Shown: positions 26,789 to 57,544 of the stretch, in pieces
Numbering within the stretch: position 1 is the first letter of the stretch
Layout of the letters: each line of letters opens with the position of its first letter
Source of the DNA: Dehalococcoidia bacterium
Lineage (GTDB): Bacteria > Chloroflexota > Dehalococcoidia > Lucifugimonadales > CATOSD01
Length of the DNA stretch: 64,000 nt
Direction of reading: 5' to 3'
NCBI GenBank assembly: GCA_965203135.1
Contig: CBDBBO010000001.1
Span: 1,878,760 to 1,942,759, forward strand
Program-made: the position numbers and the translations under genes
Notes under the pieces: model-generated
Database searches by the model: none
What the model was told of the DNA's origin: nothing
What the model saw: the letters and a program-made list of their open reading frames with translations, nothing else

Positions 26789-27007
26789 TTACAGTCCGCC
26801 CAATTGGGAGAAAGAGGACAGCTTGCCCCTGGATGCGTTCACAGGGACGGGCCTGAAGCGATCGTCCTGGGGCTCGTCCGCCGCTGCCGGTACCACCGGC
26901 AGAAAGACGGCCGTCAGCGCTACCAGGGCGCCGATGAGCGCGGCCGGGATCAAAAGCCTGTCCCGCGCTTGGTGCGGGGGTGGGGGGTCTGTACAGTAGG
27001 GTTCCAT
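26789..27007 (-). CDS. 72-aa leader-like ORF (poly-Pro, signal-anchor, GGL end) heading the locus-1 surface operon
   Basis: GGAGG plus 11 nt plus ATG, the same start context as genes at 51929 and 55341. MEPYCTDPPPPHQARDRLLIPAALIGALVAL... ends in LGGL, 24 nt before the large gene. Confidence 0.35.
   Translation of the reverse strand: MEPYCTDPPPPHQARDRLLIPAALIGALVALTAVFLPVVPAAADEPQDDRFRPVPVNASRGKLSSFSQLGGL
26976..26987 (-). repeat. Interrupted homopolymer (CCCCCCACCCCC on the coding strand) encoding the PPPP of the locus-1 leader
   Basis: GGGGGTGGGGGG on the plus strand. It is positionally equivalent to the uninterrupted C14/C15 tracts of locus 2. Confidence 0.6.
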
Positions 27008-27199: not shown

Positions 27200-30100
27200 A
27201 TGGACACACTCATACACGAATCGTCGGAGGTCGCCCTGGACCCGGGCGTCAGCCTCGAGGAGGCCGCCGGGCTGAAGCGGGAGATAGAGATGCTGCGGGC
27301 CCGCCTTTCCGAGTTGAGCGGGGCTACTCTGCGCATCATCGAGGATCCGGACCTCGACACTGTCCTGCAGGGAGTCATAGACGGGGCCCGCTCGCTGACC
27401 GGCGCACGGTACGGCGCGCTCCTCATCCTCGACCACCTTGGGGGCATCGAGGCTCTCATCACCTCCGGCATAACCTACGAAGAGGCTGCGGCTATCACAG
27501 TCGAGCCCAAGGGTTTGGGATTGCTGGGATATCTCAACGAGCTTCGGGGGCCGCTGAGACTGCGGGACATCGCCGCTCATCACAGGTCGATAGGTTTTCC
27601 CAAAGGCCACCCCCCGATGAAGAGCTTTCTCGGGACCCCGATCATCCATCGCGGCGAGAGGCTCGGCAACATCTACCTCACCGAGAAGGAGCACGGCGAG
27701 GAGTTCACGCCGGAAGACGAAGAGAGCCTCACCGTGTTCGCCTCCCATGCGGCGACGGCCATCTTCAACGCCCGAGCCTACCAGTTCGAGCGCCAGGCCA
27801 AGGCCGACCTGGAGGCGCTGAACGAGCGATTTCTCATGCTTTGCGAGGCCGTTCGCGTCCTCAGCGAAAGCCTCGACGTCGATTCCGTTCTAGACCGGAT
27901 TGTGACCAGCGCGAGGTCGCTCACCGGAGCGCGCAACGGCTTGATTACGACGCTCGACGAGTCCGGGCGGCTGGTGGACTTCTACACCTCCGGGTTCACC
28001 CCCGAAGATCGCGAGGTCCTGCTGGACGTGCCCCGAGGGCCGGAGATACTGGACCACTTTCACAACCTGCCGCGCCCGTTGCGCGTGCCGGACTTGACGG
28101 CCCATATCCGCAACCTCGGCTTTTCCGATGCGCTTCCTCCTCTGGCGACCGCACTGTCCGTGCCGGTCTATTTCCGCGACGTCCGCGTGGGCAACCTTTA
28201 CCTCGCCAACAAAGAGGGTGGAGCCGAGTTCACCGAAGGCGACGAAGAGTTGATGAGCGTGCTCGCCTCCCAGGCGGCGGTCGCCATCGCCAACGCTCGA
28301 GCCTACCAGTCCGAGCGCCAGGCCAAGGCCGACATGGAAGCGCTGAACGAGCGATTTCTCATGCTTTGCGAGGCCGTTCGCGTCCTCAGCGAAAGTCTCG
28401 ACGTCGATTCCGTTCTAGACCGGATTGTGACCAGCGCGAGGTCGCTCACCGGAGCGCGCAACGGCTTGATTACGACGCTCGACGAGTCCGGGCAGTTGGT
28501 GAACTTCTACCCTTCCGGGTTCACCCCCGAAGATCGCGAGGTCCTGCTGGGCGTACCCCGAGGGCCGGAGATACTGGACCATTTCCACAACTTGCCGCGC
28601 CCGTTGCGCGTGCCGGACTTGACGGCCCATATCCGCAACCTCGGCTTTTCCGATGCGCTTCCCCCTCTGGCGACCGCGCTGTCCGTGCCGGTCTATTTCC
28701 ACGACGTCCGCGTGGGCAACCTTTACCTGGCCAACAAGGAAGGCGGAGCCGAGTTCACCGAAGGCGACGAAGAGTTGATGAGCGTGCTCGCCTCCCAGGC
28801 GGCGGTCGCTATCGCCAACGCCCGAGCCTACCAGTCCGAGCGGCAGGCCAAGGCCGACATGGAGGCACTGGTGGACACCTCGCCCGTGGGAGTGATGGTG
28901 TTCGACGCGAAAACGCTGGACCTGGTGTCGTTCAACCAGGAGACCAGACGGATAGTGCGTGGGCTGAGCGGGCTGGGCCGCAGCCGGGAGGCGCTGTTCA
29001 GCGTGATGAGCTTCCGGCGTCCGGACGGGCGCAAGATTCCGCACGAGGAACTGCCGACGGCCCGAGCGATACGCGACGGCAACTCGGTGCGCGCCGAGGA
29101 GATAATCATCGATCTCCCGGGCGACCAGACGATCAGAACTATCATCAACGCCACGCCCGTCTTTTCGGAAGAGGGAGAAGTAGTCTCCGTCATCACCACC
29201 ATGCAGGACATGACGCCGCTGGAGAGGACGGAAAGGCTGCGCGCCGAGTTCGTCGGCATGGTGAGCCACGAGCTTAGAACGCCGTTGGCCGCCATCAAAG
29301 GCTCCGCCGCCACTGTGCTGGGCGCTTCGTCCGCCCTCGATAGCGAGGAGATGCGCCACTTCTTCCGGGTTATAGACGATCAGGCCGACCGTATGCGCGG
29401 CCTCATCTCGGACCTTCTCGACACGGCGCAGATAGAGGCGGGCACGCTGTCGGTCGATTCCGAGCCCGCTGATATGGCGGACCTGGTCGAGGAGGCGAGG
29501 CGCGCCTTCCTGCGCGGCGGAGCCACGAACGTCATCGAGGCCGACCTCCCGCCGGGCCTGCCCCGTGTCGAGGTGGACCGGCAGCGCATGGGGCAGGTGC
29601 TGAACAACCTCTTCGCCTACGCCTCCAGGCACTCGCCCTATATGTCCACCATCAGGATGAGCGCGTCGGTGGACGACGTGTACGTTTCCATATCAGTGGC
29701 GGACGAGAGCAGGGACGTGTCCGGCGAGCGTCTGCGCCAACTTTTCAGAAGGTTCTCTCCCGTGGACGGCGAAGACCGATACGGGCAGTCGGCGGGAGAA
29801 GGCCTAGGTCTGATCGTATGCAGGGGGATAGTGGAAGCGCACGGGGGCCGCATATGGGCCGAAAGCATCGGCCCCGGCCTGGGCACTCGGTTCACCTTCA
29901 CCGTTCCGTCCGTCGAGGAGGCCGCCCGCGGCGCGGCGGCAAACTCCGGCTGGCTCCTCGCCGACGCTGAGCGAACGGAGGGAGCGCGGACGCGCGTTCT
30001 GGTGTTGGACGATGAGCCGCACATACTGCTGCACCTTCGGAATACCCTGCGGGAAGCGGGCTACGCCTCTATGGTCACCGACAATCCGAAAGAGGCGCAC

Positions 30101-30745
30101 CGTCTCATAGAGACGGATAAGCCCCACCTGATCCTGCTCAACCCGACGCTGGCCGACCCTGTATCGGAGTACTGGACGGGCGAAATCGAGCTGATGGACG
30201 ACATCCGCGAGTTCACCGACGCGCCGGTCATCTTCATGTCGGGACAGGCCAGCGACGATGACATCGCACGCGCCTTCGACGTGGGGGCCGACGACTACAT
30301 CCTCAAGCCCTTCTCGCCGACCGAGCTGGTGGCCAGAATCAGGGCGGCCCTGCGCCGGCAATCGGCACAGGAGCCGACACAGACGCGCGAGCCTTATCTG
30401 CTGGGAGACCTGATGATAGACTACCAGGAACGCCGCGTGACGCTCGCGGGCAGGCCGGTGCAACTGACTTCCACCGAATACAAGCTGCTCTCGGACCTTT
30501 CCGCCAACGCCGGACGAGTTTTGAGCCACGACCAACTGCTGAGACGGGTCTGGGGCCCGGGCTACGAGGGCGACACACAGCCCGTACGCACCTTCGTCAA
30601 GAACCTCCGCCGCAAGCTGGGAGACGACCCGAGGAACCCCGCCTACATCTTCACCGAGCCCCGCGTCGGCTACCGCATGGCAAAGTCGGGGGGGGGGGGG
30701 GCACGCCGGACGCCGGACGCGAGGCGCATGACTCATGGCGATTAG
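27200..30745 (+). CDS. Soluble hybrid sensor GAF-GAF-GAF-PAS-HisKA-HATPase-REC-OmpR-type wHTH (locus 1)
   Basis: No TM segments. H-box MVSHELRTPL, G-boxes (GEGLGLIV), a receiver (VLVLDDEP...KPF) and a winged-helix tail (LTSTEYKLL...RVGYRMA). The receiver has Asn at the phospho-acceptor position (LILLNPT). Confidence 0.9.
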   Translation: MDTLIHESSEVALDPGVSLEEAAGLKREIEMLRARLSELSGATLRIIEDPDLDTVLQGVIDGARSLTGARYGALLILDHLGGIEALITSGITYEEAAAITVEPKGLGLLGYLNELRGPLRLRDIAAHHRSIGFPKGHPPMKSFLGTPIIHRGERLGNIYLTEKEHGEEFTPEDEESLTVFASHAATAIFNARAYQFERQAKADLEALNERFLMLCEAVRVLSESLDVDSVLDRIVTSARSLTGARNGLITTLDESGRLVDFYTSGFTPEDREVLLDVPRGPEILDHFHNLPRPLRVPDLTAHIRNLGFSDALPPLATALSVPVYFRDVRVGNLYLANKEGGAEFTEGDEELMSVLASQAAVAIANARAYQSERQAKADMEALNERFLMLCEAVRVLSESLDVDSVLDRIVTSARSLTGARNGLITTLDESGQLVNFYPSGFTPEDREVLLGVPRGPEILDHFHNLPRPLRVPDLTAHIRNLGFSDALPPLATALSVPVYFHDVRVGNLYLANKEGGAEFTEGDEELMSVLASQAAVAIANARAYQSERQAKADMEALVDTSPVGVMVFDAKTLDLVSFNQETRRIVRGLSGLGRSREALFSVMSFRRPDGRKIPHEELPTARAIRDGNSVRAEEIIIDLPGDQTIRTIINATPVFSEEGEVVSVITTMQDMTPLERTERLRAEFVGMVSHELRTPLAAIKGSAATVLGASSALDSEEMRHFFRVIDDQADRMRGLISDLLDTAQIEAGTLSVDSEPADMADLVEEARRAFLRGGATNVIEADLPPGLPRVEVDRQRMGQVLNNLFAYASRHSPYMSTIRMSASVDDVYVSISVADESRDVSGERLRQLFRRFSPVDGEDRYGQSAGEGLGLIVCRGIVEAHGGRIWAESIGPGLGTRFTFTVPSVEEAARGAAANSGWLLADAERTEGARTRVLVLDDEPHILLHLRNTLREAGYASMVTDNPKEAHRLIETDKPHLILLNPTLADPVSEYWTGEIELMDDIREFTDAPVIFMSGQASDDDIARAFDVGADDYILKPFSPTELVARIRAALRRQSAQEPTQTREPYLLGDLMIDYQERRVTLAGRPVQLTSTEYKLLSDLSANAGRVLSHDQLLRRVWGPGYEGDTQPVRTFVKNLRRKLGDDPRNPAYIFTEPRVGYRMAKSGGGGARRTPDARRMTHGD
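27788..28837 (+). repeat. Perfectly in-frame tandem duplication, 2 x 525 bp, of one GAF domain
   Basis: GAGCGCCAGGCCAAGGCCGAC... recurs at 27788, 28313 and (boundary) 28838. The copies differ at only a few codons. Confidence 0.9.
30688..30701 (+). repeat. G14 homopolymer tract at the 3' end of the kinase gene, 34 nt upstream of the DegV start
   Basis: CAAAGTC G14 CACGCC. It encodes the GGGG of the tail, after the wHTH has ended (GYRMA). Confidence 0.9.
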
Positions 30746-31583
30746 AATAGTCACCGACAGCTGTTCGGATTTGCCGCCCGAAGTGGCCCGGCGCAATGAC
30801 ATCAGCGTGGCGCCTCTCTACGTCAACATCGGTGGCGACACCTACCGCGATGGGGTGGACATCGGCGCCGACCGCTTCTACTCCCTCCTGGAACGGCTCC
30901 CCGACCTGCCCACCACTTCCCAACCCTCCGTCGGCGACTTCATGGACATCTACCGACGGCTGTTGGACGAAGGCCACCAGGTAGTGTCCATTCACGTCAG
31001 CGGCAAACTGAGCGGCGCCCTCAACTCCGCGACCCAGGCCAGGGCGTCGCTGGGCGACCCGCCCCAGATAGCCGTCATCGACTCCCGTCTGGCGGGAGGG
31101 GCGCAGGCGCTGCTTACGCTGAGCGCCGCCCAGTACGCCCGCGAGACGAGCGACGTAGGGGAAGTCGCCCGGAGAGTGGAACGTTCGATAGAGAGGAACC
31201 ACTGCTTCGTGGTGATAGACACGCTGAAGTACCTTCAACGGGGCGGGCGCATCGGCAAGGCGCAGGCGTTCCTCGGAGGCGCGCTCCGGTTCAAGCCCAT
31301 CGTCAGCGTCCGCGACGGCGAGGTTCACCCGGTGGAGCGTCCGCGAACTCGCCGACGGGCCATTGCCCGCGTCATCGGTCTCGCGCGCGAGATGGCCCCC
31401 GTAAGCCGCATACACGTGAGCTACACCACCGGGCGGGAGTTGGCCCACGCCGTAATCGAAGGTCTGGCCGACCTGGTGGAGCCGGACGGCATCACCGAGT
31501 CGCGGTTCGGGCCGGCGCTGGGCACGCATCTCGGCCCCGGCGCCGTCGCGGTAGCGTTGAGCCAACCTGATCCGGACGCATAG
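30735..31583 (+). CDS. DegV family (fatty-acid-binding) protein
   Basis: MAIRIVTDSCSDLP, TSQPS and LKYLQRGGRIGKA motifs. The start overlaps the kinase stop by 11 nt. Confidence 0.85.
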   Translation: MAIRIVTDSCSDLPPEVARRNDISVAPLYVNIGGDTYRDGVDIGADRFYSLLERLPDLPTTSQPSVGDFMDIYRRLLDEGHQVVSIHVSGKLSGALNSATQARASLGDPPQIAVIDSRLAGGAQALLTLSAAQYARETSDVGEVARRVERSIERNHCFVVIDTLKYLQRGGRIGKAQAFLGGALRFKPIVSVRDGEVHPVERPRTRRRAIARVIGLAREMAPVSRIHVSYTTGRELAHAVIEGLADLVEPDGITESRFGPALGTHLGPGAVAVALSQPDPDA

Positions 31584-37088: not shown

Positions 37089-37159
37089 GACGATTGGTTG
37101 CAACCGACCTTGGCCAACGCCCTTCTGGGAAGTACGACTGAGAGCCTATCCGATAAGTC

Positions 37160-37197
37160 CCTTCCCCCTCGCAGGGGGAAGGTTAGGATGGGGGCGC
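37160..37197. repeat. REP-like hairpin element, copy 2
   Basis: CCCTTCCCCCTCGCAGGGGGAAGGTTAGGATGGGGGCG, between the convergent Mrr-like and VapC genes. Confidence 0.7.
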
Positions 37198-43823: not shown

Positions 43824-45776
43824 CTACTCGTCGAACCACACTCCGGTCATGCGGGTGCGGTGGTAGTAGTCGTGCACGCCTTTCAGGTTGCCGTTGATGA
43901 CGGTGTAGCTGACGACGTTGCCCGGGATGCGGTGAGTCACGTTCTCGTAGTAGGACTTCTGCACCGCGTCCACCAGGCGCTTCTGCTCGGCGGGGTCGAT
44001 GGTGCGCGAGTACTGCGTCTTCAGCTCCTCGATCTCGAGGTTGTCGTGCCAGCCGTAGGTCTTGTGATTGAGGGCCCAGTTGAACACGGGGTTGTTGGTG
44101 GGCACGCCGCAGCAGTCGGTGGGGAACAGGTCCCAGTACTCGCGGTCCTGGCGGAAGGTTATCGCCGTGGCCCAGTCGGGCTGCTGCAGGTCCACGCTGA
44201 AGCCGATCTCCCTGGCGGCAGCCGCGTTCACGATACCGCGGTCGAGGTGGGTGACGTAGCTGGTGTTGCCCATTATGACTATCTCGGTGTTCGGGTCCCA
44301 GCCGGTCTCCTCCACGAACTCCCGGAAGAGCCGCTGGGCCTTAGCCATGTCGTCCTGGTTGTACAGTTCCAGCCCGGCGTCGCTCTCGTTGGGCGTGCCG
44401 CAGATGAAGATGGCGCCGCACAGGCTCCACAGGTCCCGCGGGTTGTGGGCGGCCATCAGTGATTCGGCGTCCATCGCGGCCTGCATGGCCTGGCGCGCCT
44501 TCAGGTTGCTGAAGGGCAGCTTGGTGTGGTTCATCAGCAGCACCGGCGTGTAACCCGCCGGGTAGACGAAGGTGGACAGCCTGGGGTCTGCCTTTACTTC
44601 GGGCCAGAAGTCTGTCGGAGGGCTGGGGGTGTAGTGGATCCTGCCCGTCTTGAGACCGGCCAGAAGCACTGCGCTGTCGGGAATCTCCACGATCTCCAGC
44701 GCGTCCAGCAGCACTCTCTCGCCCTGAGGATAGATGCCGTTCGGGAAGCCTTCGCGGGGCGTGAGTTCGAAGCGGTCGCCGGGCGTCCAGTTGGCCAGCC
44801 GCCAGGGGCCGGATGCCGTGAAGTCGTCCACGCGGTCGCGCGGGCTGACTGTGCCCGCGATCTCGGATTTCATAATGAACGGCGCCTGGCCCAGTCCGAG
44901 AGAGGTCACCGCGAACGGCTCTTTCAGGTAGATCTCGAAGGTGAGGTCGTCGATCTTCGCCATGCTCCAGTCGGAGTTGTTGCCCGCCAGTGTGCGCTGC
45001 ATCAGCGCGATGCCGGCGGTGATGCGCTCGGCCCAGCGGAAGGTGGAGGCGATGAAGTCGTCGGACGTGAGCTGGTCTCCGTCCTCGAAGCTCATGTCGT
45101 CGCGCAGCTTGAAGGTCCAGGTAAGCTGGTCGTCGCTGATTTCCCAGCTGTCGAACATGTTGTTGTGCAGCGCGCCGTTGGTGTCGAGCCTGAACGGAAA
45201 CTCGTAGAGGTGCAGGGCCACTTGCTGGGTGACGAAGGCGGTGGTCCATACGGGGTCGATAGCCTCCACCGACGCGCCCAGTGCGAACGTGGCCTTGCCG
45301 CCTTCGCTTCCGTATGTGGGCGGGATGGGAGTAGCGGTGGGCGGTACGGCGGTAGCGGTGGGCGGCACGGTGGTAGCGGTGGGTGGCACGGTGGTAGCGG
45401 TCGGCACGGCAGTAGCGGTGGGTGGCACGGCCGTAGCCGCGGGTGGCACGGGTGTAACCGTAGACGGCACGGGCGTGGCAGCGGGCGCCTCGGCTCTGGC
45501 GGTGGCCGGCACGGGCGTGGCGGTGACCGTCGCAGTCGGGCTGGCCGTTGGGGCTTTGGTTGGAGTCGGCATCTGAGTGGCCGTCGGGATCGGGATGGGC
45601 GTTGGTGTCGCGGGTGGAGTCGGTACGGGCGTGGCAGTGGGCGCGGGCGTATTGACGACCGCCGTCGCTGGCGCGTCGGCCGAGGTCGAGTCGCCGCCGC
45701 ACGCCGCGAGGACGCAGACCGTCATCAGGCAGGACAGCCCGAGCCACAAAGTCCACCCGGAGTTAACGCGCTTCAT
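43824..45776 (-). CDS. ABC transporter substrate-binding lipoprotein, family 5, with a long Pro/Thr/Ala repeat linker
   Basis: Lipobox LAAC, about 120 aa of PT/PA repeats (PPTATAV units) and an SBP_bac_5-like body. No permease genes are adjacent. Confidence 0.85.
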   Translation of the reverse strand: MKRVNSGWTLWLGLSCLMTVCVLAACGGDSTSADAPATAVVNTPAPTATPVPTPPATPTPIPIPTATQMPTPTKAPTASPTATVTATPVPATARAEAPAATPVPSTVTPVPPAATAVPPTATAVPTATTVPPTATTVPPTATAVPPTATPIPPTYGSEGGKATFALGASVEAIDPVWTTAFVTQQVALHLYEFPFRLDTNGALHNNMFDSWEISDDQLTWTFKLRDDMSFEDGDQLTSDDFIASTFRWAERITAGIALMQRTLAGNNSDWSMAKIDDLTFEIYLKEPFAVTSLGLGQAPFIMKSEIAGTVSPRDRVDDFTASGPWRLANWTPGDRFELTPREGFPNGIYPQGERVLLDALEIVEIPDSAVLLAGLKTGRIHYTPSPPTDFWPEVKADPRLSTFVYPAGYTPVLLMNHTKLPFSNLKARQAMQAAMDAESLMAAHNPRDLWSLCGAIFICGTPNESDAGLELYNQDDMAKAQRLFREFVEETGWDPNTEIVIMGNTSYVTHLDRGIVNAAAAREIGFSVDLQQPDWATAITFRQDREYWDLFPTDCCGVPTNNPVFNWALNHKTYGWHDNLEIEELKTQYSRTIDPAEQKRLVDAVQKSYYENVTHRIPGNVVSYTVINGNLKGVHDYYHRTRMTGVWFDE

Positions 45777-49190: not shown

Positions 49191-51626
49191 CTATCGCCGT
49201 GTCTTTGCCCTTGTCAACGGCGGCGCTGGCTCCGGCGTTGTGTCTGCTGCTGGTTTTCCCTCCCCCCTCGCCATCCGGTAGCCGACGCGGGGTTCGGTGA
49301 AGATGTACCTGGGGTTGCCAGCGTCGTCCCCCAGCTTGTGGCGGAGCCTCCTCACCATGTCCCGCACCAGCCAGGGCTCGCCGACCTTCTCCGGACCCCA
49401 GACCCGCTGTAGCAGCACGGCGTGGGTCAGCGTGCGGGGGGCGTGGACCGTAAGCTCGTAGAGCACCGCGTACTCCGTGGCCGTAAGCTCCACCGGCTCC
49501 CCTCTCACCGTCACCCGGCGCAGCGCGTAGTCGATGACCAGCCCTCCGGCCTCGTAGGGTCCCGACGGCTCGGCCTGGAAGGGGTCCAGCCGCTTCCTGA
49601 GCGCCGCCCTGATCCTCGCCGCAAGCTCCGTCGGCGAGAAGGGCTTCACCAAGTAGTCCGCCGCCCCCATGTCGAGAGCACGGGCGACGGTCTCGTCCTG
49701 GCCGTACACCGACAGGAAGATGACCGGCACGTCCGCCGTCTTGCGGATGTCGTTCATCAGCTCGATTCCGTCGCTGCCCGGGAGAATCAGGTCCAGCAGG
49801 ACAAGGTGGGGCTTCTCCTCCTCCATTAGGCGGGGCACGTCGGCGGGGTCGCCGGTGGCGACGGGCGCGTAGCCCGCCCTGGTGAGCACGTCGCGGGCGT
49901 ACCGCAGGTCCTGGGGATTGTCGTCCACGGCCAGCACACGAACCTTGGGCGCGCGCCGCGAACCGGCAGCGGCGGTATCGGGAGCCGGAGTCGCGGACCG
50001 CTCCACCGCCGGCAGCGTGAAGGTGAGTCTCGCGCCCAGGCCCGGCCCGTCGCTCTCGGCCCAGATGCGGCCCCCGTGGGCCTCGACGATGCCCTTGCAG
50101 ATGGCGAGACCCAGCCCCGACCCGTCGACGCCAGATGCCGTCGCCGCGCCGGACGCCCGGGAGAACCTGCGGAACAGCTCCGGCAGAAGCTCCGCGGGTA
50201 TGCCCCGGCCCCGGTCGGCGACTGAGACCGCTACGTGGACCCCGTCCCGCACCGCGCTCACCAGTATCGGCGACCCCTCGGGGGAATACCCTGCGGCGTT
50301 GGAGAGCAGGTTGCCCAGCACCTGGACGATGCGCCGACGATCGGCCATCACCTGGGGCAGGTCCGCAGCCACCTCCACCTCCAGGGGGTTCCTCGCGTCT
50401 GCGCTCCGGAACAGGCCCCCGGCCTCCTCCACCAGCAGGCGCAGGTCGGCGGGCTCCGGGTCCACCGGCAGCGCGCCCGCCTGGATGCGGGCCACGTCCA
50501 GCAGGTCGCCTATGAGGCCGCGCATGTGCTCGGCCTGGTCCTGGATGATGCGGAAGAACTGGCTCATCTCCGCCGGGTCCAGCCGGGCCGATTCCGCGGC
50601 CAGGGTGTCGGCAGAACCCTTGACGGACATCAGGGGGGACCGCAGCTCATGGCTCACCATGGCCAGGAATTCGGCCCGCAGCCGCTCCTGCTCCTCCAGC
50701 GGCGTCATGTCCTGTAGGGTGACGACGAACGACGCGAGCACACCCTCCTCCGAGTGGATCGGGGAGGCGTTGAGCAGGACGCTGACGCTCCGTCCGTCGG
50801 GGACCCGCAGCACGATCTCCTCGGCCCGCACCGTCTCCTCGGCCCTCAGAGCCTCGGCCACCGGCAACTCCCGCAGCGAGGTCTCCCGCCCGTCGGAACG
50901 CACCAAGGTCAGCGCCTCCAGCAGGGCCTCGGTCGGCTGGTCATCGTCCCGTAGGCTGTCCGCGATGCGCAATGCCTCCCGGTTGAAGGACACCATTCTC
51001 CCCGTCCGGGCGTCGAGGACGACGACGCCCACCGGCGAGGTGTTCACAAGCGTCTCCAAGTCGGCCCTGGTCTGCCGCTCCTCCCGGTAGGCGCGGGCGT
51101 TGGCGATGACCAGCGCCGCCTGGGAGGCGAACATCACCAGGGTCTCCTCGTCGGCCTGGGTGAACTCCTCCCCGTCCTCCCTGTCGCCCACGAAGACGTG
51201 GCCCACCCGGACTCCCCGGTGGAACATGGGCGCCGCCAGGAAGCGATAGACCGGCCCCACCGTCATGGGGATGGTGAAATCGGCGAAACCCAGGCCCCGG
51301 ACGTGCTCCACCAGGTCGGGCAGGCGCAGGGGCTCGGAGATTTCGGTCAGGGACTGGAAGATGCGCAGCCCCTCCGGCATCAGCCAGAGCTGCTCCGACT
51401 CCTCGCCGCTCAGCCCGGAGGAAAGGAAGTCCCGCAACATGCCGTCGTCGTCGAGGAGGGTCATCACCCCGTGGCGAGCGCCGGTCAGGGAGCGGGCCGA
51501 GTCCAGCGCTCCCTGGAGCACCTGGTCGAAGTCTAGGCTCTCGTTGATGCGCCGGCTGGCCTCGCTCAGCCGCGACAGGCGCTCCCGCAGCGCCTCTATC
51601 TCCCGGTCCCGCTGGTCTGCACTCAC
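49191..51626 (-). CDS. Soluble hybrid sensor GAF-PAS-HisKA-HATPase-REC-OmpR-type wHTH (locus 2)
   Basis: GTG start after AGGAGG. H-box MVSHELRSPL. Canonical receiver (LVLLDLILPGSDG, KPF) and wHTH (LTATEYAVL...RVGYRMA). Confidence 0.9.
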   Translation of the reverse strand: MSADQRDREIEALRERLSRLSEASRRINESLDFDQVLQGALDSARSLTGARHGVMTLLDDDGMLRDFLSSGLSGEESEQLWLMPEGLRIFQSLTEISEPLRLPDLVEHVRGLGFADFTIPMTVGPVYRFLAAPMFHRGVRVGHVFVGDREDGEEFTQADEETLVMFASQAALVIANARAYREERQTRADLETLVNTSPVGVVVLDARTGRMVSFNREALRIADSLRDDDQPTEALLEALTLVRSDGRETSLRELPVAEALRAEETVRAEEIVLRVPDGRSVSVLLNASPIHSEEGVLASFVVTLQDMTPLEEQERLRAEFLAMVSHELRSPLMSVKGSADTLAAESARLDPAEMSQFFRIIQDQAEHMRGLIGDLLDVARIQAGALPVDPEPADLRLLVEEAGGLFRSADARNPLEVEVAADLPQVMADRRRIVQVLGNLLSNAAGYSPEGSPILVSAVRDGVHVAVSVADRGRGIPAELLPELFRRFSRASGAATASGVDGSGLGLAICKGIVEAHGGRIWAESDGPGLGARLTFTLPAVERSATPAPDTAAAGSRRAPKVRVLAVDDNPQDLRYARDVLTRAGYAPVATGDPADVPRLMEEEKPHLVLLDLILPGSDGIELMNDIRKTADVPVIFLSVYGQDETVARALDMGAADYLVKPFSPTELAARIRAALRKRLDPFQAEPSGPYEAGGLVIDYALRRVTVRGEPVELTATEYAVLYELTVHAPRTLTHAVLLQRVWGPEKVGEPWLVRDMVRRLRHKLGDDAGNPRYIFTEPRVGYRMARGEGKPAADTTPEPAPPLTRAKTRR

Positions 51627-51710
51627 CGAATCTTACCTCCTGGGTTGGGGGTGACGGGGCCGTTTCCGGCCCCGGACGCACTGGGGTCTTCACAGAATTA
51701 TACTCCACTG

Positions 51711-51729
51711 TCCACAACACTTTCCACAA
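51711..51729 (-). promoter_or_regulatory. Direct repeat TTGTGGA-N5-TTGTGGA next to a TATAAT box in the locus-2 divergent promoter region
   Basis: On the minus strand: TTGTGGAAAGTGTTGTGGA, followed 8 nt later by TATAAT (51702-51697). Orientation relative to the kinase gene is the same as for the locus-1 repeat. Confidence 0.4.
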
Positions 51730-51928
51730 AAGAAGGGGTCAAAACCACGTGGAGGCGATGGGGCGTCGGGTATAGTTTCTGCTGGGTCTGTGCGTCCCCA
51801 GCCCGAGGGAACGGCGCTGGCCGCCTGATCCCAGCGGGGAAGCTGGAAGCAGCCGCTCCGCTGGCGGGGTTGGGGGGATCATACCGACCGATGAAGCAGA
51901 CCGCTGCTTGATAGGAGACACGATAGCC

Positions 51929-54160
51929 ATGTTCGACTCAGGAAGCAACAGCAGTAGGGTGCGCCGCCTGCTGGGGGCGGCTATGCCTTCTACCCCCCCC
52001 CCCCCCCGATTCTCAGCCGCCGACAACCACGGGAGGCCCACGATGATGCGGGCCTCCTTCCTCCGCCTATCCCCGCTCCTGCTGTTGGCGGCCGCTCTCG
52101 TCGGGCTGGCGGTCTTTTTCGCGCCCGGCGCGCAGCCCGGCGCGCAGCCCGTCTCCGCGCAGGACAACTGTGACGCACCCGGCGGCGCCCGGAACGTAAA
52201 GGTGACCGCCGGCAACGCCAAGTTGACGCTGACCTGGGAGGAGCCGACGTCCTGGGGAGATTGGGATAGCGATGGCTATCGCTACTATATTGTCCATTGG
52301 CGGCGAGCCGACGCCGACCCTGAGCTTTCATTCAATCTGATCGATAACGGCCGGAGCAGGAGGCCGCCGACAACATCGTATGTGTTTACAGGCACCTATG
52401 AAGAGGAGCTCTCAAATCCTCGCAGGTTTCAAAATCACACAGTTGTGAATGGAACCAAGTACGATCTGGATGTTCAGACAGCTTACACCAATCGAGAATG
52501 CGGACACACTCGCGGCCAACAGGTGCAAGCGTCCGGCACCCCGGTGGAAACCCTGGAAATCCCATCCGCCGACGCCACCCTCAGCGGCCTGGAGCTGGCC
52601 AACGCCGCGGACGACAGCGACGCGCCGGTGGATCGGATAGGGTACATCAGCGAAGATCGCCTCTACCTCGCCCCGATGCTGCGGGAAGTCGATTTCATAA
52701 CTGTCAAGCCCACCGCCACGGCGGGAGACCTCGCGACCATCACGGTGCGGCGAGAGATGGGCGGGACGCCCGAGACCGTGGCCAGCGGCGCAATCAGCTC
52801 CAGAATTCACATCGCTCCCAAAGCGGACTCGAGCGTTCCTCACAACATCTTCGTGACGGTGACCGCGGAGAACGGCAGCGACACCCTGACCTACCATGTA
52901 AAAGTCTACCAATACCCTCCCGTCAGCTTCCAGGGCGTCACCGTGGAGGACAAGACCTACACCGAGGGTAGAGAAATCTCATTCCTGAACCTCAGCGAGA
53001 CTGAGAGGGACGCTCTCAAGCTGCCCCAGGCGGCCGGCGTATTTTATGCCGTAGACGTCACCTACGAGGCCACGGGCCTGCCCGCAGGGTTGACCATGGG
53101 CCACGACAGGCACATCCGCGGCACGCCCACGGCCAAGACCGACACCCCGGCCACTGTCACCTACAAGGTCACTGACGCTATTGGCGGCTCGGCTTCCCTC
53201 ACGTTCCAGGTGACGGTCAACCCGCCGGTGGCCTTCGACGCGGAAGACCTCAACACCTACTACGGGAGGGTCATCACCTACACCGCGGGCCAGGCGGCGC
53301 CCCTCACCGTCACACTGCCGCAGGCCACGGGAGGCACGGGGACGCTGACCTACGAACTGGTATTCCGCACCGCCGAGGCCGTTCCGCCGTCTGTCCCCGG
53401 CGCGGGCGTAAACCTGGATCCCTCCACCCGGGTCCTGACCATCGACGGGAACTCGAATGTCAACCGGATCGCTCTCCGGGACACGGGATACGCCATCAGC
53501 TACCGGGCGAGGGACGAAAATGGGGCGACGGCGTCGGCCGCCAGCAGCATCTCCGTGATCGGACCTCCGACCCTGTCGAACATAGAGGACCAGTCCTACA
53601 CCGCGGGCAGTGCCGTCTCTCTCACACTGGGGGCGGCCAGCGGGCCGTGGTGGAAGATGGTGGCCCCGTTGAGCTATGAGCTCGCGGGGCAGGTCGATGG
53701 CCTCGCCTTTTCCGGAGGGAGCAACCCCACCCTCTCCGGCACGCCCACGGTTGCGGGCGTCACGGCGATGACCTACACGGCAACGGACGGCAACGGCGTC
53801 AGCGCCAGCCGGAACTTCACCGTCACCGTGGTCAACGGTCCCAATGTCCCGACCGCCGCGCCCGCGTCCCTGGCAGCAGTCCAGGTAAGCCGGGACGCTG
53901 TGGCGACCTGGGACGCCGTGACGGGAGCGACGGCCTACGTGGTCCAGGTCATAGCCGACGGCGGCAGCTACCCGGACAGGCCGGTCAACTCCACGCCCGC
54001 CGGCGTCGCTCTCAGCTTCCTCGTAGGCAGCGTCAGCGGCGTCAGCATCGAAGGCCTCAGCGACGGCGACTACAAGGTGCGCGTCGCCGCCAGGAACGAT
54101 GACGGCGTGGGCCCGTGGTCGGCGGAGGCCAGCTTCACCGTGAAGGTGGGAGGGCTCTAG
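51929..54160 (+). CDS. N-anchored surface protein (FN3, cadherin-like, several He_PIG-like Ig domains, C-terminal FN3) with a poly-C tract in its leader
   Basis: AGGAG plus 11 nt plus ATGTTCGAC start context, shared with 55341. An alternative internal start at ATG 52043 follows GGGAGG. The signal-anchor is LLLLAAALVGLAVFFAPGAQ. Ends in VGGL. Confidence 0.75.
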   Translation: MFDSGSNSSRVRRLLGAAMPSTPPPPRFSAADNHGRPTMMRASFLRLSPLLLLAAALVGLAVFFAPGAQPGAQPVSAQDNCDAPGGARNVKVTAGNAKLTLTWEEPTSWGDWDSDGYRYYIVHWRRADADPELSFNLIDNGRSRRPPTTSYVFTGTYEEELSNPRRFQNHTVVNGTKYDLDVQTAYTNRECGHTRGQQVQASGTPVETLEIPSADATLSGLELANAADDSDAPVDRIGYISEDRLYLAPMLREVDFITVKPTATAGDLATITVRREMGGTPETVASGAISSRIHIAPKADSSVPHNIFVTVTAENGSDTLTYHVKVYQYPPVSFQGVTVEDKTYTEGREISFLNLSETERDALKLPQAAGVFYAVDVTYEATGLPAGLTMGHDRHIRGTPTAKTDTPATVTYKVTDAIGGSASLTFQVTVNPPVAFDAEDLNTYYGRVITYTAGQAAPLTVTLPQATGGTGTLTYELVFRTAEAVPPSVPGAGVNLDPSTRVLTIDGNSNVNRIALRDTGYAISYRARDENGATASAASSISVIGPPTLSNIEDQSYTAGSAVSLTLGAASGPWWKMVAPLSYELAGQVDGLAFSGGSNPTLSGTPTVAGVTAMTYTATDGNGVSASRNFTVTVVNGPNVPTAAPASLAAVQVSRDAVATWDAVTGATAYVVQVIADGGSYPDRPVNSTPAGVALSFLVGSVSGVSIEGLSDGDYKVRVAARNDDGVGPWSAEASFTVKVGGL
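51993..52007 (+). repeat. C15 homopolymer tract in the 5' leader of gene 51929..54160
   Basis: TCTA C15 GATTC. It encodes TPPPP and is in frame with the downstream signal-anchor at this length. Confidence 0.9.
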
Positions 54161-54207: not shown

Positions 54208-55299
54208 GTGATGATGCTGCGTAGACCTGGATTGCAGGCCGGACACGTTTGGCGCGTCGCGGTCGTCGCCGTGCTTGCCGCTGCGGCGCTCCTGCTCCTC
54301 CACGACGCGCCGCACGCCGCCTGGGCGCAGGCCCCACCGTCCGACGACGCCACCCTCAGCGCGCTGGAGATCGCGAACGCCACGACCGGCAGCGACGCGT
54401 CGGCGGGCACGGTGTGGCCCTTTGGCGCTCGCGCCTACGTCGCCGTGATGCTCCAGGAGGTCACCAGCGTCACCGTCCGGCCCACCGCCACGGCGGGCGA
54501 CCTCGCGGCCATCACGGTGCAGCTGGAGAGCGGCGGGACGCCCCAGACCGTGGCCAGCGGCGCGGACAGCTCCGCAATCACCATCACCCCCAAGGCCGAC
54601 TCCTCCGTGCCGCACAACATCCTGGTGAAGGTCACCGCGGAAAACGGCAGCGACACCCTGACCTACACGCTGAAGGTGTACCAGTACCCACCCGTCAGCT
54701 TTGACGCCGCCGTCCCTGCTCTGACATTCACGCAGGGCGCCAGGGTGGAGCACCGGCTCCCGTCGGGCAGCGACGACTACGAGGTGACCTACACCGCCAC
54801 CGGCCTGCCCGCGGGACTGTCCCTGTCGAGCGTCCATCGGGCCATCGTCGGCACGCCCACTGCCGTCACCGCGAGCCCCGCCACCGTCACCTATACCGCC
54901 ACCGGCGAGATAGGCAGCACGGCCTCCCTCACCTTCGACGTGTCGGTCGCCCCGCCGGTGACCTTCGACGATGCGGCCAGGAGGTTCTGCAGCTCCAGGA
55001 TCGTCGCGTTCACCGGCGGAGAGTGGCTGGACGCCGACGACGATGGAACGATCACCTATCCGGCGGCGTCGGGCGGCGCCGGGACACTCACCTACAGCCT
55101 GATTGAATCCGACTCGCAGCAGCCGCTGGCCAGCGTGGCTTCCGGGATCACCTTCGACACCGCGACCCGGAAGCTTGGCGGAACCCCGGCGGCAGCCGCG
55201 CAGAAGACATGGTCCGTGACCTACGCTGCCGAGGATCAGAACGGCAGCCGGGCCGCGTGCACCACCGCAGTACATGCCGGCGGCTTCGGCGGCCTGTAG
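54208..55299 (+). CDS. Secreted or anchored protein with cadherin-like and He_PIG-like domains
   Basis: Start is probably ATG 54211 or 54214, after GGAGG at 54202-54206. The cadherin-like segment is about 80 percent identical by eye to that of the upstream gene. Ends in FGGL. Confidence 0.75.
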   Translation: MMMLRRPGLQAGHVWRVAVVAVLAAAALLLLHDAPHAAWAQAPPSDDATLSALEIANATTGSDASAGTVWPFGARAYVAVMLQEVTSVTVRPTATAGDLAAITVQLESGGTPQTVASGADSSAITITPKADSSVPHNILVKVTAENGSDTLTYTLKVYQYPPVSFDAAVPALTFTQGARVEHRLPSGSDDYEVTYTATGLPAGLSLSSVHRAIVGTPTAVTASPATVTYTATGEIGSTASLTFDVSVAPPVTFDDAARRFCSSRIVAFTGGEWLDADDDGTITYPAASGGAGTLTYSLIESDSQQPLASVASGITFDTATRKLGGTPAAAAQKTWSVTYAAEDQNGSRAACTTAVHAGGFGGL

Positions 55300-55404
55300 G
55301 CGCGGGGACGAAACACAATTGAAAGGAGGACTCAGCAACCATGTTCGACAACAGAGAGAAAACAACCCGCCGCGGAGCGCCGCCGGGGGCGGCCATGCCC
55401 GTTA

Positions 55405-55418
55405 CCCCCCCCCCCCCC
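55405..55418 (+). repeat. C14 homopolymer tract separating a conserved leader ORF from the Calx-beta protein body
   Basis: GTTA C14 GAACG. The upstream frame (ATG 55341) and the downstream frame (55453..56559) differ by +1. Confidence 0.9.
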
Positions 55419-55452
55419 GAACGCAAGTTCTATCCGCTCCCCGCTCCTCCTG

Positions 55453-56559
55453 TTGGCGGCCGCGCTGATGGCAATGGCGGTCCTCTTTGCGCCCGGCGCA
55501 CAGCCCGCCCAGGCCCAGGCCGCCAAGCCCACCGTGTCCCTCTCCGCCTCGCCCAACCCGGTGCGCGAGGGAACCAGTGTGACGGTGACGGCGAGGATTT
55601 CCCGCACCCGGAACTCCGAAACGGTGGTCCCGGTGACGCTGCACGCCGGTTCTGCCGAAGAGGACGACCACGGCGCACTGACGAGCATCACCATCCCCGC
55701 CAACTCTGCCACCGGCACGGGCGTCATCACCACCACGATGGACAGCGACACGGATGACGAGGTCTTCCACGTGGGGCTCGACAACGTGGGCAAGGACGCG
55801 GATTACGCTTGGGGTGCCGTGTCGTGGTTGAGTATCACCATCCTGGACAGCGATCTCCGCCAGGTGTCCCTCTCCGTCTCCGCCAACCCCGCGGACGAGG
55901 GTACTGTCCCGCAGGTGATTGTGACCCTGACGTCACTGAGGTGGGGCACCCCAGCGTCCCTGGGGAGCGACGTGACGATCCCGCTGACGTTCACCGCCGG
56001 CTCGGCCGAGAGCGACGACTATTCCGATTTTCCGAGCGTCACCATCCCCGCCGGCTCGACGACCAACGGGACCAGCGGCTTCATCGTCACCACCGACGAC
56101 ACCGACGCCGACGACGAGACCTTCACCATTGCGCTGGACACGGCCAACGCGGCCTGGCCGTCGGGGGTGAAGCCGGGCGCGGTCTCCTCGGTGCTGGTCA
56201 GGATCACGGACAACGACGCGGCTTCGCCGGGGACGCTGAGCGTGGACACCGGTTTCGGAAACCCGGAGTGCGGGGCCACTATCAGCGTCACCTCCGAGAC
56301 GCCGGAGTGGGCGCTCGTGCTCAGCCCGGCCCCGTCCGCTGAGGAAAACACGCAATACCGGGTCCTGGCCGATGCGAACGGCCCCTGGCTGGGGGCAGTT
56401 CCGGTCCTTACCACCGGCAGCTCGGTCTTCACCTCCTTCAAGACCTATGCCGCACATCTGGAGGCCTCCCCCGGCTTCAGGGGGTTCGAATTCAGACTCG
56501 CCGACCACGCGGACGTCACGGCGAGCTGCACCTGGACGTTCCAGACCGGAGGAGTATAG
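55453..56559 (+). CDS. Surface protein with three Calx-beta-like repeats; its body is out of frame with its probable start (ATG 55341) at the C14 tract
   Basis: The track ORF starts at an internal TTG inside the signal-anchor (..SPLLLLAAALMAMAVLFAPGAQ). No in-frame ATG/GTG/TTG lies upstream. The leader MFDNREKTTRRGAPPGAAMPVTPPPP from 55341 is homologous to the leader of gene 51929. Ends in TGGV. Confidence 0.7.
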   Translation: MAAALMAMAVLFAPGAQPAQAQAAKPTVSLSASPNPVREGTSVTVTARISRTRNSETVVPVTLHAGSAEEDDHGALTSITIPANSATGTGVITTTMDSDTDDEVFHVGLDNVGKDADYAWGAVSWLSITILDSDLRQVSLSVSANPADEGTVPQVIVTLTSLRWGTPASLGSDVTIPLTFTAGSAESDDYSDFPSVTIPAGSTTNGTSGFIVTTDDTDADDETFTIALDTANAAWPSGVKPGAVSSVLVRITDNDAASPGTLSVDTGFGNPECGATISVTSETPEWALVLSPAPSAEENTQYRVLADANGPWLGAVPVLTTGSSVFTSFKTYAAHLEASPGFRGFEFRLADHADVTASCTWTFQTGGV

Positions 56560-56563
56560 GTAA

Positions 56564-57544
56564 ATGAGAGGCACGATGCGACGCATTGCACTGGCTGCGG
56601 GACTGCTGCTAATCCTCTCCGTCGCTCTCGCGGCCTGCGGGGGCGGCGAGGAGGCGCTGACCAGCTCTGAGGTGGAGCAGATCGTCAACGACGCCATCGA
56701 GGAGATGCCCAAGAATGAGCCCGCCCTGACGCGGGCCGACGTTGAGGAGATAGTGCGGGCGGCCATCGCCGCCATCCCGTCCAAGTCCGCCCCCGCCGAG
56801 TACACGCAATACTTCGTGGGCAACGCCATCTCACGCTACGAATCCCAGGGCCGGGACGCCACCCTCGCCCACTACAACAGCCCGCAGAGCGTGGACGGCC
56901 AGTGGTACGTCTTCATCATCGACCAGAACGATCTCGTCATCGGACACCCCGACCCCGGACGACTGGGCCTGGACCTGAAGGGCTGGGTGGGCACCGACGC
57001 CAACGGCTACGAGTTCGGGCCTGAGATGCTCTCGGCCACGGAGGAGGGCAAGTGGGTGTCCTACGTCTACCGCAACCCGGAGAGCGGTGGCATAGGCACC
57101 GGCGACTTCGAGCTCAAGAACGCCTGGGTGGTGAAGCGCGACGGGCTGCTGTTCGGCTCGGGCTGGTACATCGACGCGGACGAGTTCACCAGGATGCTGG
57201 TGTCCGTGGCGGTGGACAAGTACCGCGAACTGGGACTGGCGGGAACGATGGCCTACTTCGCCAGCCCGGGAAGCGTCCTGGCGGGCCTTGAGGAGGCCAT
57301 CGCCTACTACAACGACACCGAGACCATCGACGGCCACTGGTTCGCCTTCATAGGAGGGCCGGACGGGAAGATCGTGGGCCACTCCGACATCTCGAAGATC
57401 GGCGGGGACGTCCAGCACCTGTTCGGCGGGGAGACGTTCGAGGCCACCGAGTCTGGCGTCTGGGTCGAGTCCGAGTCGCTGCGGGTGTACGTGGCGGGCT
57501 ACGACGGCCACGTCTTCGGCTCCGGCTGGAGCCGGGACGAGTAG
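56564..57544 (+). CDS. Lipoprotein with tandem Cache-like domains, paralog 2
   Basis: Lipobox LAAC. About 85 percent identical by eye to 22270..23244 over roughly 265 aa. Confidence 0.8.
   Translation: MRGTMRRIALAAGLLLILSVALAACGGGEEALTSSEVEQIVNDAIEEMPKNEPALTRADVEEIVRAAIAAIPSKSAPAEYTQYFVGNAISRYESQGRDATLAHYNSPQSVDGQWYVFIIDQNDLVIGHPDPGRLGLDLKGWVGTDANGYEFGPEMLSATEEGKWVSYVYRNPESGGIGTGDFELKNAWVVKRDGLLFGSGWYIDADEFTRMLVSVAVDKYRELGLAGTMAYFASPGSVLAGLEEAIAYYNDTETIDGHWFAFIGGPDGKIVGHSDISKIGGDVQHLFGGETFEATESGVWVESESLRVYVAGYDGHVFGSGWSRDE

Follow-up and report, generated by a model that had tools for sequence, protein, structure and literature searches.

A stretch of 64,000 nt from a Dehalococcoidia bacterium (contig CBDBBO010000001.1), analysed over its whole length and called here the window, carries an adhesin locus with two genes whose starts are unusual. 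Gene 1 encodes a putative secreted protein with cadherin-like domains of the immunoglobulin (Ig) type, and gene 2 (ATG 55341) encodes a protein with a Calx-beta-like body. Both begin with a short leader open reading frame (ORF) that has its own Shine-Dalgarno (SD) sequence and runs into an uninterrupted homopolymer, C15 at gene 1 and C14 at gene 2. How these leaders are built, how they vary among related genomes and whether the tract might act as a slipped-strand switch of the gene behind it are considered below.

Leader and start region of gene 1

From ATG 51929 the frame reads MFDSGSNSSRVRRLLGAAMPSTPPPPRF... (MFDSGSNSSRVRRLLGAAMPSTPPPPRFSAADNHGRPTMMRASFLRLSPLLLL...) and at C15 it remains open to the stop codon at 54158-54160, giving 743 amino acids (aa). 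The tract ends 36 nt upstream of the main ATG (52043), which follows the SD sequence GGGAGG (52031-52036) after a 6-nt spacer. The body of the protein has Pfam matches to He_PIG (1.7e-13), fn3 (5e-8) and Big_9. Exact-sequence look-ups of both product forms of gene 1 and of the homologue P0006 gave no match, and NCBIfam has no family for the proteins. A twin-arginine translocation (Tat) signal was considered for the RRLL of the fused leader and rejected: no hydrophobic region comes next, as the polyproline and a 15-residue spacer intervene. Coordinates of the features are collected in Table 1.

An earlier note on this DNA, made from the sequence alone, had described a conserved leader in frame with the gene body, a possible second start at ATG 52043 and a tract belonging to the leader of the adhesin itself. 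The leader is indeed conserved and in frame at C15, and ATG 52043 proves to be the conserved start of the family, as database homologues begin MMRAS.... The leader is better described, however, as a distinct upstream ORF that is no part of the mature adhesin, has an SD sequence of its own and stands before many different genes.

Where does transcription begin? A TATAGT element and the block downstream of it are kept some 150 nt ahead of the leader ORF among copies that are first in their locus, although a simple sigma-70 scan made no call at 51771-51800. Transcription probably starts upstream of the leader ORF, the TATAGT element being a putative promoter only. Since this element lies about 150 nt upstream of first leaders, and the leader of gene 2 begins 42 nt past the preceding stop codon, the tract would be inside the transcript.

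Table 1. Coordinates of leader, tract and gene features at the adhesin locus (positions in the window)
Feature	Coordinates	Strand	Basis
Divergent hybrid GAF-PAS-HisKA-HATPase-REC-OmpR-type regulator	49191..51626	-	Pfam; synteny
Putative promoter-like TATAGT, then CTGCTGGGTCTGTGCG	51771..51800	+	Comparison by eye of gene 1, L005, L011, L015, L147 and L026
SD of leader ORF (AGGAG), 11 nt before ATG 51929	51913..51917	+	Sequence; SD before leader ATG in nearly all homologous copies
Leader ORF up to the tract, MFDSGSNSSRVRRLLGAAMPS(T); C-terminal block RRLL(R/G)AAMPxT; inner ATG 51983	51929..51992	+	Comparison of homologues
C15 homopolymer; its length sets the exit frame of leader ribosomes	51993..52007	+	Sequence; shuffle test; homologous tracts C8-C23
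CGA where the closest homologues carry the early stop TGA (GCCGCTGA)	52021..52023	+	Comparison with L005, L011, L025, L024, L026, L022 and L147
Predicted hairpin: GGAGGCCC (52032-52039) pairs with GGGCCUCC (52050-52057), ATG 52043 and ATG 52046 in the loop	52031..52057	+	Minimum free energy (MFE) and centroid folds
Main ORF: Sec-type signal peptide MMRASFLRLSPLLLLAAALVGLAVFFAPGAQP..., Ig-like/fn3/cadherin-like body ending GGL	52043..54160	+	Pfam; homologues start MMRAS
TGA overlapping ATG 52043 (ATGA); leader-ORF stop at C14/C17	52044..52046	+	Frame translation
TGA closing the out-of-frame leader read-through at C13/C16	52171..52173	+	Frame translation
Second cassette: SD AGGAGG (55324-55329), leader ORF from ATG 55341, C14 (55405-55418)	55324..55418	+	Homology to the leader of gene 1
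Body of gene 2, Calx-beta-like, with no SD or ATG after the tract	55419..56559	+	Sequence; frame translation

The poly-C tracts

The C15 was confirmed at exactly 51993-52007 on the forward strand, where the earlier note had placed it, and its length is far beyond chance. Homopolymers of at least 8 nt number only three in the window (C15 at 51993, C14 at 55405 and G14 at 30688), and these three C/G runs of at least 14 nt compare with 0.01 expected per window in dinucleotide-preserving shuffles, at a G+C content of 65.5%. Could the tract be an assembly artefact, as the note had allowed? Sequencing runs X1-X3, whose types are unrecorded, were used as assembled contigs, and at 98% identity each run contributes a single contig that spans or touches the tract. 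A 903-nt contig of the independent run X2 corresponds to 51978-52880, and with it to the C15, with zero differences, so that the tract is no artefact of the present assembly. C15 is the sole length seen for gene 1 itself in the run contigs. Contigs of run X1 break inside both tracts, which is compatible with length heterogeneity but not diagnostic of it.

The tract encodes proline whatever the frame. In ordinary genes of the window, CCC makes up 41% of proline codons, and none of the 20 Pro-Pro pairs is CCC-CCC; every leader, by comparison, has a pure C run. The purity of the run, the lack of CCC-CCC in ordinary genes and lengths that are not multiples of three all argue that the homopolymer is selected at the DNA level.

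Exit frames at genes 1 and 2

Ribosomes from the leader ATG exit the tract in a frame that depends on its length. For gene 1, translation of the three frames gives a fusion of 742-744 aa at C12, C15 (the present state) and C18; a leader peptide of 38-39 aa at C14 and C17, which stops at TGA 52044 over ATG 52043; and an out-of-frame read-through of 80-81 aa to TGA 52171 at C13 and C16. The read-through exists because the ancestral early TGA is CGA in gene 1, so that the early stop of the third frame has been lost. The ATGA overlap at C14/C17 has the layout of translational coupling and is absent at the present C15. A one-base slip thus does not simply truncate the protein, as had been assumed, since the frames end on the main start or at 52171. 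The related suggestion, that slippage toggles the N-terminal form rather than merely losing the gene, stands as far as frame translation goes: a change in length alters the form.

Gene 2 has no internal start, and its product is therefore possible only as a leader fusion. At C13 or C16 the frame yields a protein of 405-406 aa (putatively ON), at the present C14 it yields 138 aa (putatively OFF) and at C15 only 42 aa (likewise OFF); the leader of gene 2 is thus out of frame, as had been noted. In run X2 (sample S1) the contig covering gene 2 has C14, whereas that in run X3 (sample S2) has C13, the in-frame length, with no other difference.

A portable leader cassette in related genomes

About 35 homologous leaders were compared from metagenome-assembled genomes (MAGs) of sponge Dehalococcoidia/SAR202, and together they describe a portable cassette. 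The order of its parts is an SD sequence and ATG, a leader ORF 19-25 codons long with RRLLRAAMPxT at its end, an uninterrupted C tract, and the SD sequence and ATG of the main gene. In runs from sponge-associated samples about 100 contigs per run match 51916-52130 at 85% identity, and depth on this segment is 100-600 compared with about 10 on either side of it. In GTDB species genomes a pattern scan returned 26 loci, nearly all in Dehalococcoidia/SAR202 MAGs and several of them in single-chromosome records; a metagenome scan with the loose pattern GAGGGCGGCCATGCCNNNTAC returned mostly chance matches, with at least seven real loci among the matches listed. The region of the window from regulator to leader is about 81% identical to two of the loci from the GTDB scan, which suggests that the window, too, derives from a Dehalococcoidia bacterium living with sponges. 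In 266 kb of cassette loci, almost every C run of at least 8 nt sits in the context ...GAGGGCGGCCATGCCnnnTA-Cn-GA... (TA-Cn-GA).

Among the N-termini of the leaders, the unrelated classes number at least six (MFDxGSNS..., MSLSxAFSA..., MSIIRxxLD..., MRKPTQTH..., MKLTxA... and MTDHSHRG...), and all of them join in frame on (R)RLLRAAMPxT, with RARAADPLT in two extra copies of locus L008. Inside the RRLLRAAMPxT block there are synonymous changes, CTG/CTT/TTG and AGG/CGG. With its SD sequence and ATG, its convergent N-termini and these synonymous changes, the leader looks like a translated upstream ORF.

Two classes of main gene follow the cassette. Class B comprises most copies and has a second SD sequence and ATG opening a conserved signal peptide, MMRAS(V/F)FRLSPLLLLAAAL...; class A, a minority (gene 2 of the window, L009 and the second copy in L011), has no internal start and is fusion-only. 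Class A has no other route to a product, and in these genes the signal peptide fused to the leader therefore probably works. Database homologues have been called either from the main ATG (P0007, P0008, P0010) or as leader fusions (P0001, P0002, P0004). Among the class-B copies, a TGA that overlaps the main start, as ATGA or TGATG, is found in 25 of 25, in nine local sequence contexts; an open fusion frame into the main ORF in 24 of 25; and an early stop in the remaining frame, 13-58 nt before the main start, in 20 of 25. The early stop is kept in two unrelated post-tract classes, as TAG in GTTCTAG and as TGA in GCCGCTGA (GCTGA).

In one post-tract class (L001, L008, L009, L012, L016-L021, L048 and L070) the tract splits an inverted repeat, (T)TA-Cn-GAAC-nnnn-GTTCTA(G). 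This repeat, considered as an operator or recombination site, occurs in that class only and not at gene 1, and it was set aside unexplained. The invariant TA before the tract and GA after it are likewise not explained by frame switching alone. The cassette is also present in bins labelled OM1 (L013/L124) and Caldilineaceae (L018), where horizontal transfer or mis-binning is possible. Lastly, a sponge-metagenome contig of run X4 is about 93% identical to gene 1 from ATG 52043 onward and unrelated upstream, and might represent an orthologue without the leader cassette.

Variation in tract length

The comparison among relatives for which the earlier note had called finds tracts that are uninterrupted and of many different lengths, together with contigs that are identical except at the tract. 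In assemblies presumed to be long-read from the naming of their records (single-chromosome or megabase-contig records), tracts range from C8 to C23 and fall into every class modulo 3. Eighteen copies from such assemblies comprise six in the coupled state, five with the early stop, four fusions and three class-A OFF. A single 21-kb locus on a 4.4-Mb contig (L147, 10001-17700) displays the three class-B states side by side, with C12 in the fusion frame, C10 in the early-stop frame and C8 in the ATGA-coupled frame; gene callers report its leader peptides as ORFs of 29 and 36 aa. Contigs L048 and L145, from two Joint Genome Institute (JGI) metagenomes, have C18 and C22 with 0 mismatches otherwise over 1795 nt, and L013 and L124 have C9 and C10 with 0 mismatches otherwise over 2818 nt. 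Simple sequence repeat (SSR) loci are known to mutate at 100-10,000 times the basal rate (PMC11868660).

A predicted hairpin over the main start

The main SD sequence is predicted to be sequestered in a hairpin in almost all copies. Of 23 copies, about 20 have a hairpin equivalent to that of gene 1 in their MFE structure, where the 62 nt fold at about -20 kcal/mol. The probability that the SD sequence is unpaired has a median of 0.01 in the copies and 0.41 at 18 control starts of the window (Mann-Whitney p = 6e-7, with copies that are not independent of one another). Folds of the whole leader are no more stable than those of shuffled sequences (z = +0.4 and +0.8). A conserved G-rich partner for the C tract was looked for upstream and none was found, and Rfam has nothing at the gathering threshold in the window and nothing at E<=1 in 51600-52200.

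A putative translational switch

From the anatomy, the conservation, the purity of the tract and the length differences between copies and between otherwise identical contigs, all of them observed directly, we infer a function. The tract would serve as a slipped-strand contingency switch that acts through the frame of the leader ORF, with three states at gene 1 and ON/OFF at gene 2; on balance we consider this probable. Mispairing of slipped strands during replication would change Cn, as the length differences and the general behaviour of SSRs suggest. The main SD sequence and ATG (52031-52045) would be locked in a stable hairpin, such that translation of the main gene depends on ribosomes arriving from the leader. 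In the early-stop frame, present in most homologues, ribosomes would be released before the hairpin, the SD sequence would stay masked and the gene would presumably be OFF or low. In the ATGA frame (gene 1 at C14/C17), ribosomes might melt the hairpin, terminate on the start codon and re-initiate to produce the native preprotein with its signal peptide. In the fusion frame (gene 1 at C15, C12 and C18) the leader would be read straight into the gene, placing an extension of 38 residues before the signal peptide, and at C13/C16 ribosomes would cross the start of gene 1 out of frame as far as TGA 52171. Gene 2, having lost the internal start, would be a plain ON/OFF switch, at present C14 and OFF. 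The polyproline tract makes elongation factor P (EF-P) a likely second input, and RNA-level frame shifts, transcriptional or +1 ribosomal, as well as Rho polarity are possible contributors.

A broader proposal can be put forward more tentatively. It is possible that in Dehalococcoidia living with sponges a portable three-state translational cassette stands before dozens of different genes for host-interaction surface proteins, consisting of a conserved nascent chain, a hypermutable polyproline tract, a terminator for each exit frame and an SD-locking hairpin. It would yield OFF, native and extended forms, and EF-P-dependent translation of polyproline would supply a physiological input.

Several points weigh against a switch. 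Gene 1 has no early stop and hence an atypical third state. The 25 copies are homologous, so that counts such as 25 of 25 for ATGA do not represent independent events. The hairpin is a thermodynamic prediction whose arms are also an SD sequence and conserved Ala-Ser codons. Its covariation is not significant (75% of cells are paired, a value that shuffles reach in 108 of 500 trials), and RNAalifold on the copies chose a different, weak pairing instead of the SD hairpin. One-base differences, i.e. C9/C10 and C13/C14, could be homopolymer errors of sequencing or consensus, and the X3 contig with C13 could in principle derive from RNA. The length differences are between contigs, copies and samples; slippage within a population, the dependence of the main start on leader translation and the identity of the ON states are what we infer from them and from the anatomy.

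Alternative explanations

Might the leader act as a peptide and not as a counter of bases? In a polyproline arrest leader, four to seven prolines behind RRLLRAAMPxT would stall ribosomes unless EF-P and prolyl-tRNA suffice; ribosome flow through the leader would tune the gene physiologically, much as proline-codon leader peptides do, and changes in length would be a neutral by-product. The leader ORFs do have the form expected, with 19-25 codons and RRLLRAAMPxT followed by three to seven prolines. The tract is proline in all three frames, the conserved 8-10 residues adjoin the presumed stall site and leave the N-terminus free, as in arrest peptides, the synonymous changes in RRLLR point to selection at the peptide level, and the predicted sequestration of the main SD sequence is such that leader translation plausibly matters. 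Selection on a peptide, however, should give mixed CCG/CCC codons in multiples of three, whereas the copies have pure C of any length while ordinary genes avoid CCC-CCC. Neither the number of prolines nor the frame is conserved (C8-C23, with all three exit frames used), all three exit frames carry specific provisions, and, with 23 nt between tract and hairpin, a stalled ribosome would be too distant to open the latter. As a full account the arrest leader thus seems unlikely, but it could coexist with the switch as a second layer. Frame choice could also lie in the RNA, by slippage of RNA polymerase on the C run or a +1 ribosomal shift on CCC-C, with a fixed mixture of products whatever the DNA length. 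Long homopolymers are known sites of slippage, and CCC-C is known to be prone to +1 shifts, the frame being kept by EF-P and m1G37; the provisions in three frames would suit a mixture equally well, and the run with C13 at gene 2 (X3) is of unrecorded type. We nevertheless hold this to be quite unlikely, as DNA assemblies differ in tract length at identical loci and paralogues span C8-C23. Slippage of bacterial RNA polymerase is, to our knowledge, established for A/T runs and not for C/G runs, which also speaks against it.

Other alternatives place the effect in transcription or deny one altogether. In Rho-dependent polarity the C-rich tract would be a loading site for Rho that leader translation masks, and an early leader stop would expose the site and abort transcription. 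C-rich, G-poor unstructured RNA is a preferred substrate of Rho, the tract lies within the transcribed leader, and Rho attenuation controlled by upstream ORFs is well documented (PMC12360218). Fifteen nucleotides are short for a Rho utilization (rut) site, however, and translating ribosomes cover the tract in every frame. We find it very unlikely as a substitute for the switch; it concerns the output step and does not contradict it. The notion that nothing here functions, i.e. that the tracts are debris of mutation or artefacts of sequencing and ATG 52043 is simply where the true gene starts, can appeal to the error-prone nature of homopolymer lengths, to several short-read assemblies that are garbled at the tracts (L002, L010, L019) and to the main gene's own SD sequence and ATG. 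It is highly improbable in view of the C15 reproduced in an independent run and of the tracts, TA/GA flanks, leader ORF, ATGA overlap and early stops kept across many genomes in at least two post-tract classes; for class-A genes such as gene 2 no alternative start exists, and in most relatives the tracts are neither absent nor interrupted. Finally, a tract between -35 and -10 elements could set promoter strength by its length, as in Bordetella fim and Neisseria opc/porA. The (A/C)GTTCTA(G/A) that follows the tract in one class weakly resembles an extended -10, but this motif is missing from the other post-tract class (GATTCTCAGCC), that of gene 1. No sigma-70-like pair flanks either tract, although the simple consensus scan used is weak evidence; tract lengths of C8-C23 would imply spacers ranging from about 17 to 32 nt; the tract is inside an SD-led ORF conserved in frame; and the leader of gene 2 is only 42 nt past the previous gene. 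With the tract inside the messenger RNA (mRNA) and no flanking pair, this explanation was rejected and we give it next to no credence.

Neighbouring genes and other elements of the window

The regulator gene 49191-51626 is 67-81% identical to genes beside the cassette in eight loci (L015, L005, L009, L046, L021, L011, L025 and L147), and it is a candidate for controlling transcription of the locus. At each of the two adhesin loci of the window, the divergent partner is a hybrid sensor kinase/response regulator with a DNA-binding end of the OmpR type (49191-51626 on the minus strand, 27200-30745 on the plus strand), an arrangement seen again in many MAGs. The regulator gene is present at very high copy in runs X2 and X3, with a depth of 100-1000 compared with about 10. 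The G14 run (30688-30701, plus strand) lies in the last 20 codons or so of the second regulator, a hybrid GAF-PAS-HK-REC-OmpR ORF (27200-30745), past Trans_reg_C and 34 nt before the ATG of a DegV gene (30735). All three of its exit frames stop within 30729-30750, and therefore a change in its length alters only the tail of the regulator and its overlap with the DegV start.

A Cache-domain gene (56564-57544, plus strand) lies directly after gene 2 and is 82-93% identical to genes beside cassettes in six other loci, which suggests a conserved partner of the module; its depth in run X3 is about 1900 at 56808-57174. The window has four secreted proteins whose last residues are ...GGL-stop: gene 1 (54158), the gene at 54211-55299 (55297), the cadherin-like adhesin of locus 1 (23270, minus strand) and a 72-aa ORF (about 26789, minus strand). 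Most database homologues (P0002-P0010) also end in ...VGGL or ...AGGL, and the GGL end may serve this family as a C-terminal motif for sorting or processing. The small ORF (about 26789-27006, minus strand) lies between the locus-1 adhesin and its regulator. It starts MEPYCTDPPPPH..., has prolines from an interrupted C6-A-C5, a hydrophobic segment and the GGL end, and may be a decayed or stabilised relative of the tracts. Two other repeats were seen: ten tandem 21-nt units (45297-45563) in the N-terminal part of an SBP_bac_5 gene on the minus strand, and a 40-nt palindromic element, CCCTTCCCCC...GGGGGAAGG, present twice (560-599 and 37155-37194) at 90% identity.

Significance

If the proposed switch exists, phase variation would proceed via the frame of an upstream ORF and translational coupling, an unusual design that combines frame choice with termination-reinitiation and of which no description was found in the literature. 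For Chloroflexota, and likewise for sponge symbiosis, such a contingency-locus system would be the first; a literature search on phase variation, poly-C tracts and contingency loci in sponge symbionts, SAR202, Dehalococcoidia and Chloroflexota found nothing relevant. Contingency loci are known to us almost only from cultured, host-adapted pathogens and commensals. Dominant, uncultured mutualists of sponges would then vary their Ig-like, cadherin-like and fn3 'eukaryote-like' surface proteins stochastically, be it against phages, phagocytosis or recognition by the host. Selection within the host would become directly readable from counts of tract lengths in metagenomic reads, making this question of sponge symbiosis a testable one. 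The tracts, moreover, account for the fragmentation of assemblies of these MAGs and for inconsistencies in their gene calls, e.g. fused products, ORFs of 29-36 aa and apparent frameshifts.

Comparison with known systems

The locus has several traits of known contingency loci: an overlong repeat, its 5' placement before a gene for a secreted He_PIG/fn3/cadherin-like protein, and length polymorphism with identical flanks, of which the one-base cases could be homopolymer error. Closest in layout are Neisseria opa (CTCTT repeats) and pilC (poly-G), where a repeat in the 5' leader or signal region of adhesin genes sets the frame by its length, in a multi-copy family with a conserved 5' end. Gene 2 of the window matches this layout exactly. 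In most of the copies described here, however, the repeat is in a separate upstream ORF with its own SD sequence and is followed by a second SD sequence and ATG, such that two of the three frames may yield a product; the organism, moreover, is presumably an uncultured Chloroflexota sponge symbiont, in which switching is deduced from sequence. Haemophilus influenzae lic1A, with CAAT repeats and three levels of expression, is similar in having the repeat just past alternative starts and three frames that differ in outcome. The lic1 locus has alternative in-frame ATGs upstream of the repeat, whereas here the alternatives lie downstream, as ATGA reinitiation, fusion and early stop together with a predicted SD-sequestering hairpin.

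The predicted masking of the start has parallels in E. coli rpmI-rplT and phage MS2 coat-replicase, where the downstream SD sequence or start is masked, the upstream ORF ends at or over the start and dependence on upstream translation is to be expected. In those systems the upstream frame is fixed; here a hypermutable tract would decide whether the ribosome reaches the overlap, and coupling is a prediction. The Salmonella leaders MgtL and MgtP of mgtA/mgtCBR (Gall et al. 2016, as cited in PMC12360218) are also short upstream ORFs with consecutive prolines, in which the speed of translation controls the downstream gene via leader RNA structure or Rho. They have few and mixed proline codons, fixed in number, and involve no change of frame, in contrast to the variable pure C homopolymer and the three-frame provisions seen here. 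Bordetella pertussis fim2/fim3 and Neisseria opc/porA likewise have long, length-polymorphic poly-C upstream of genes for surface proteins. Their tracts lie between promoter elements and act on transcription, whereas the tract described here appears to lie within mRNA, inside a translated ORF.

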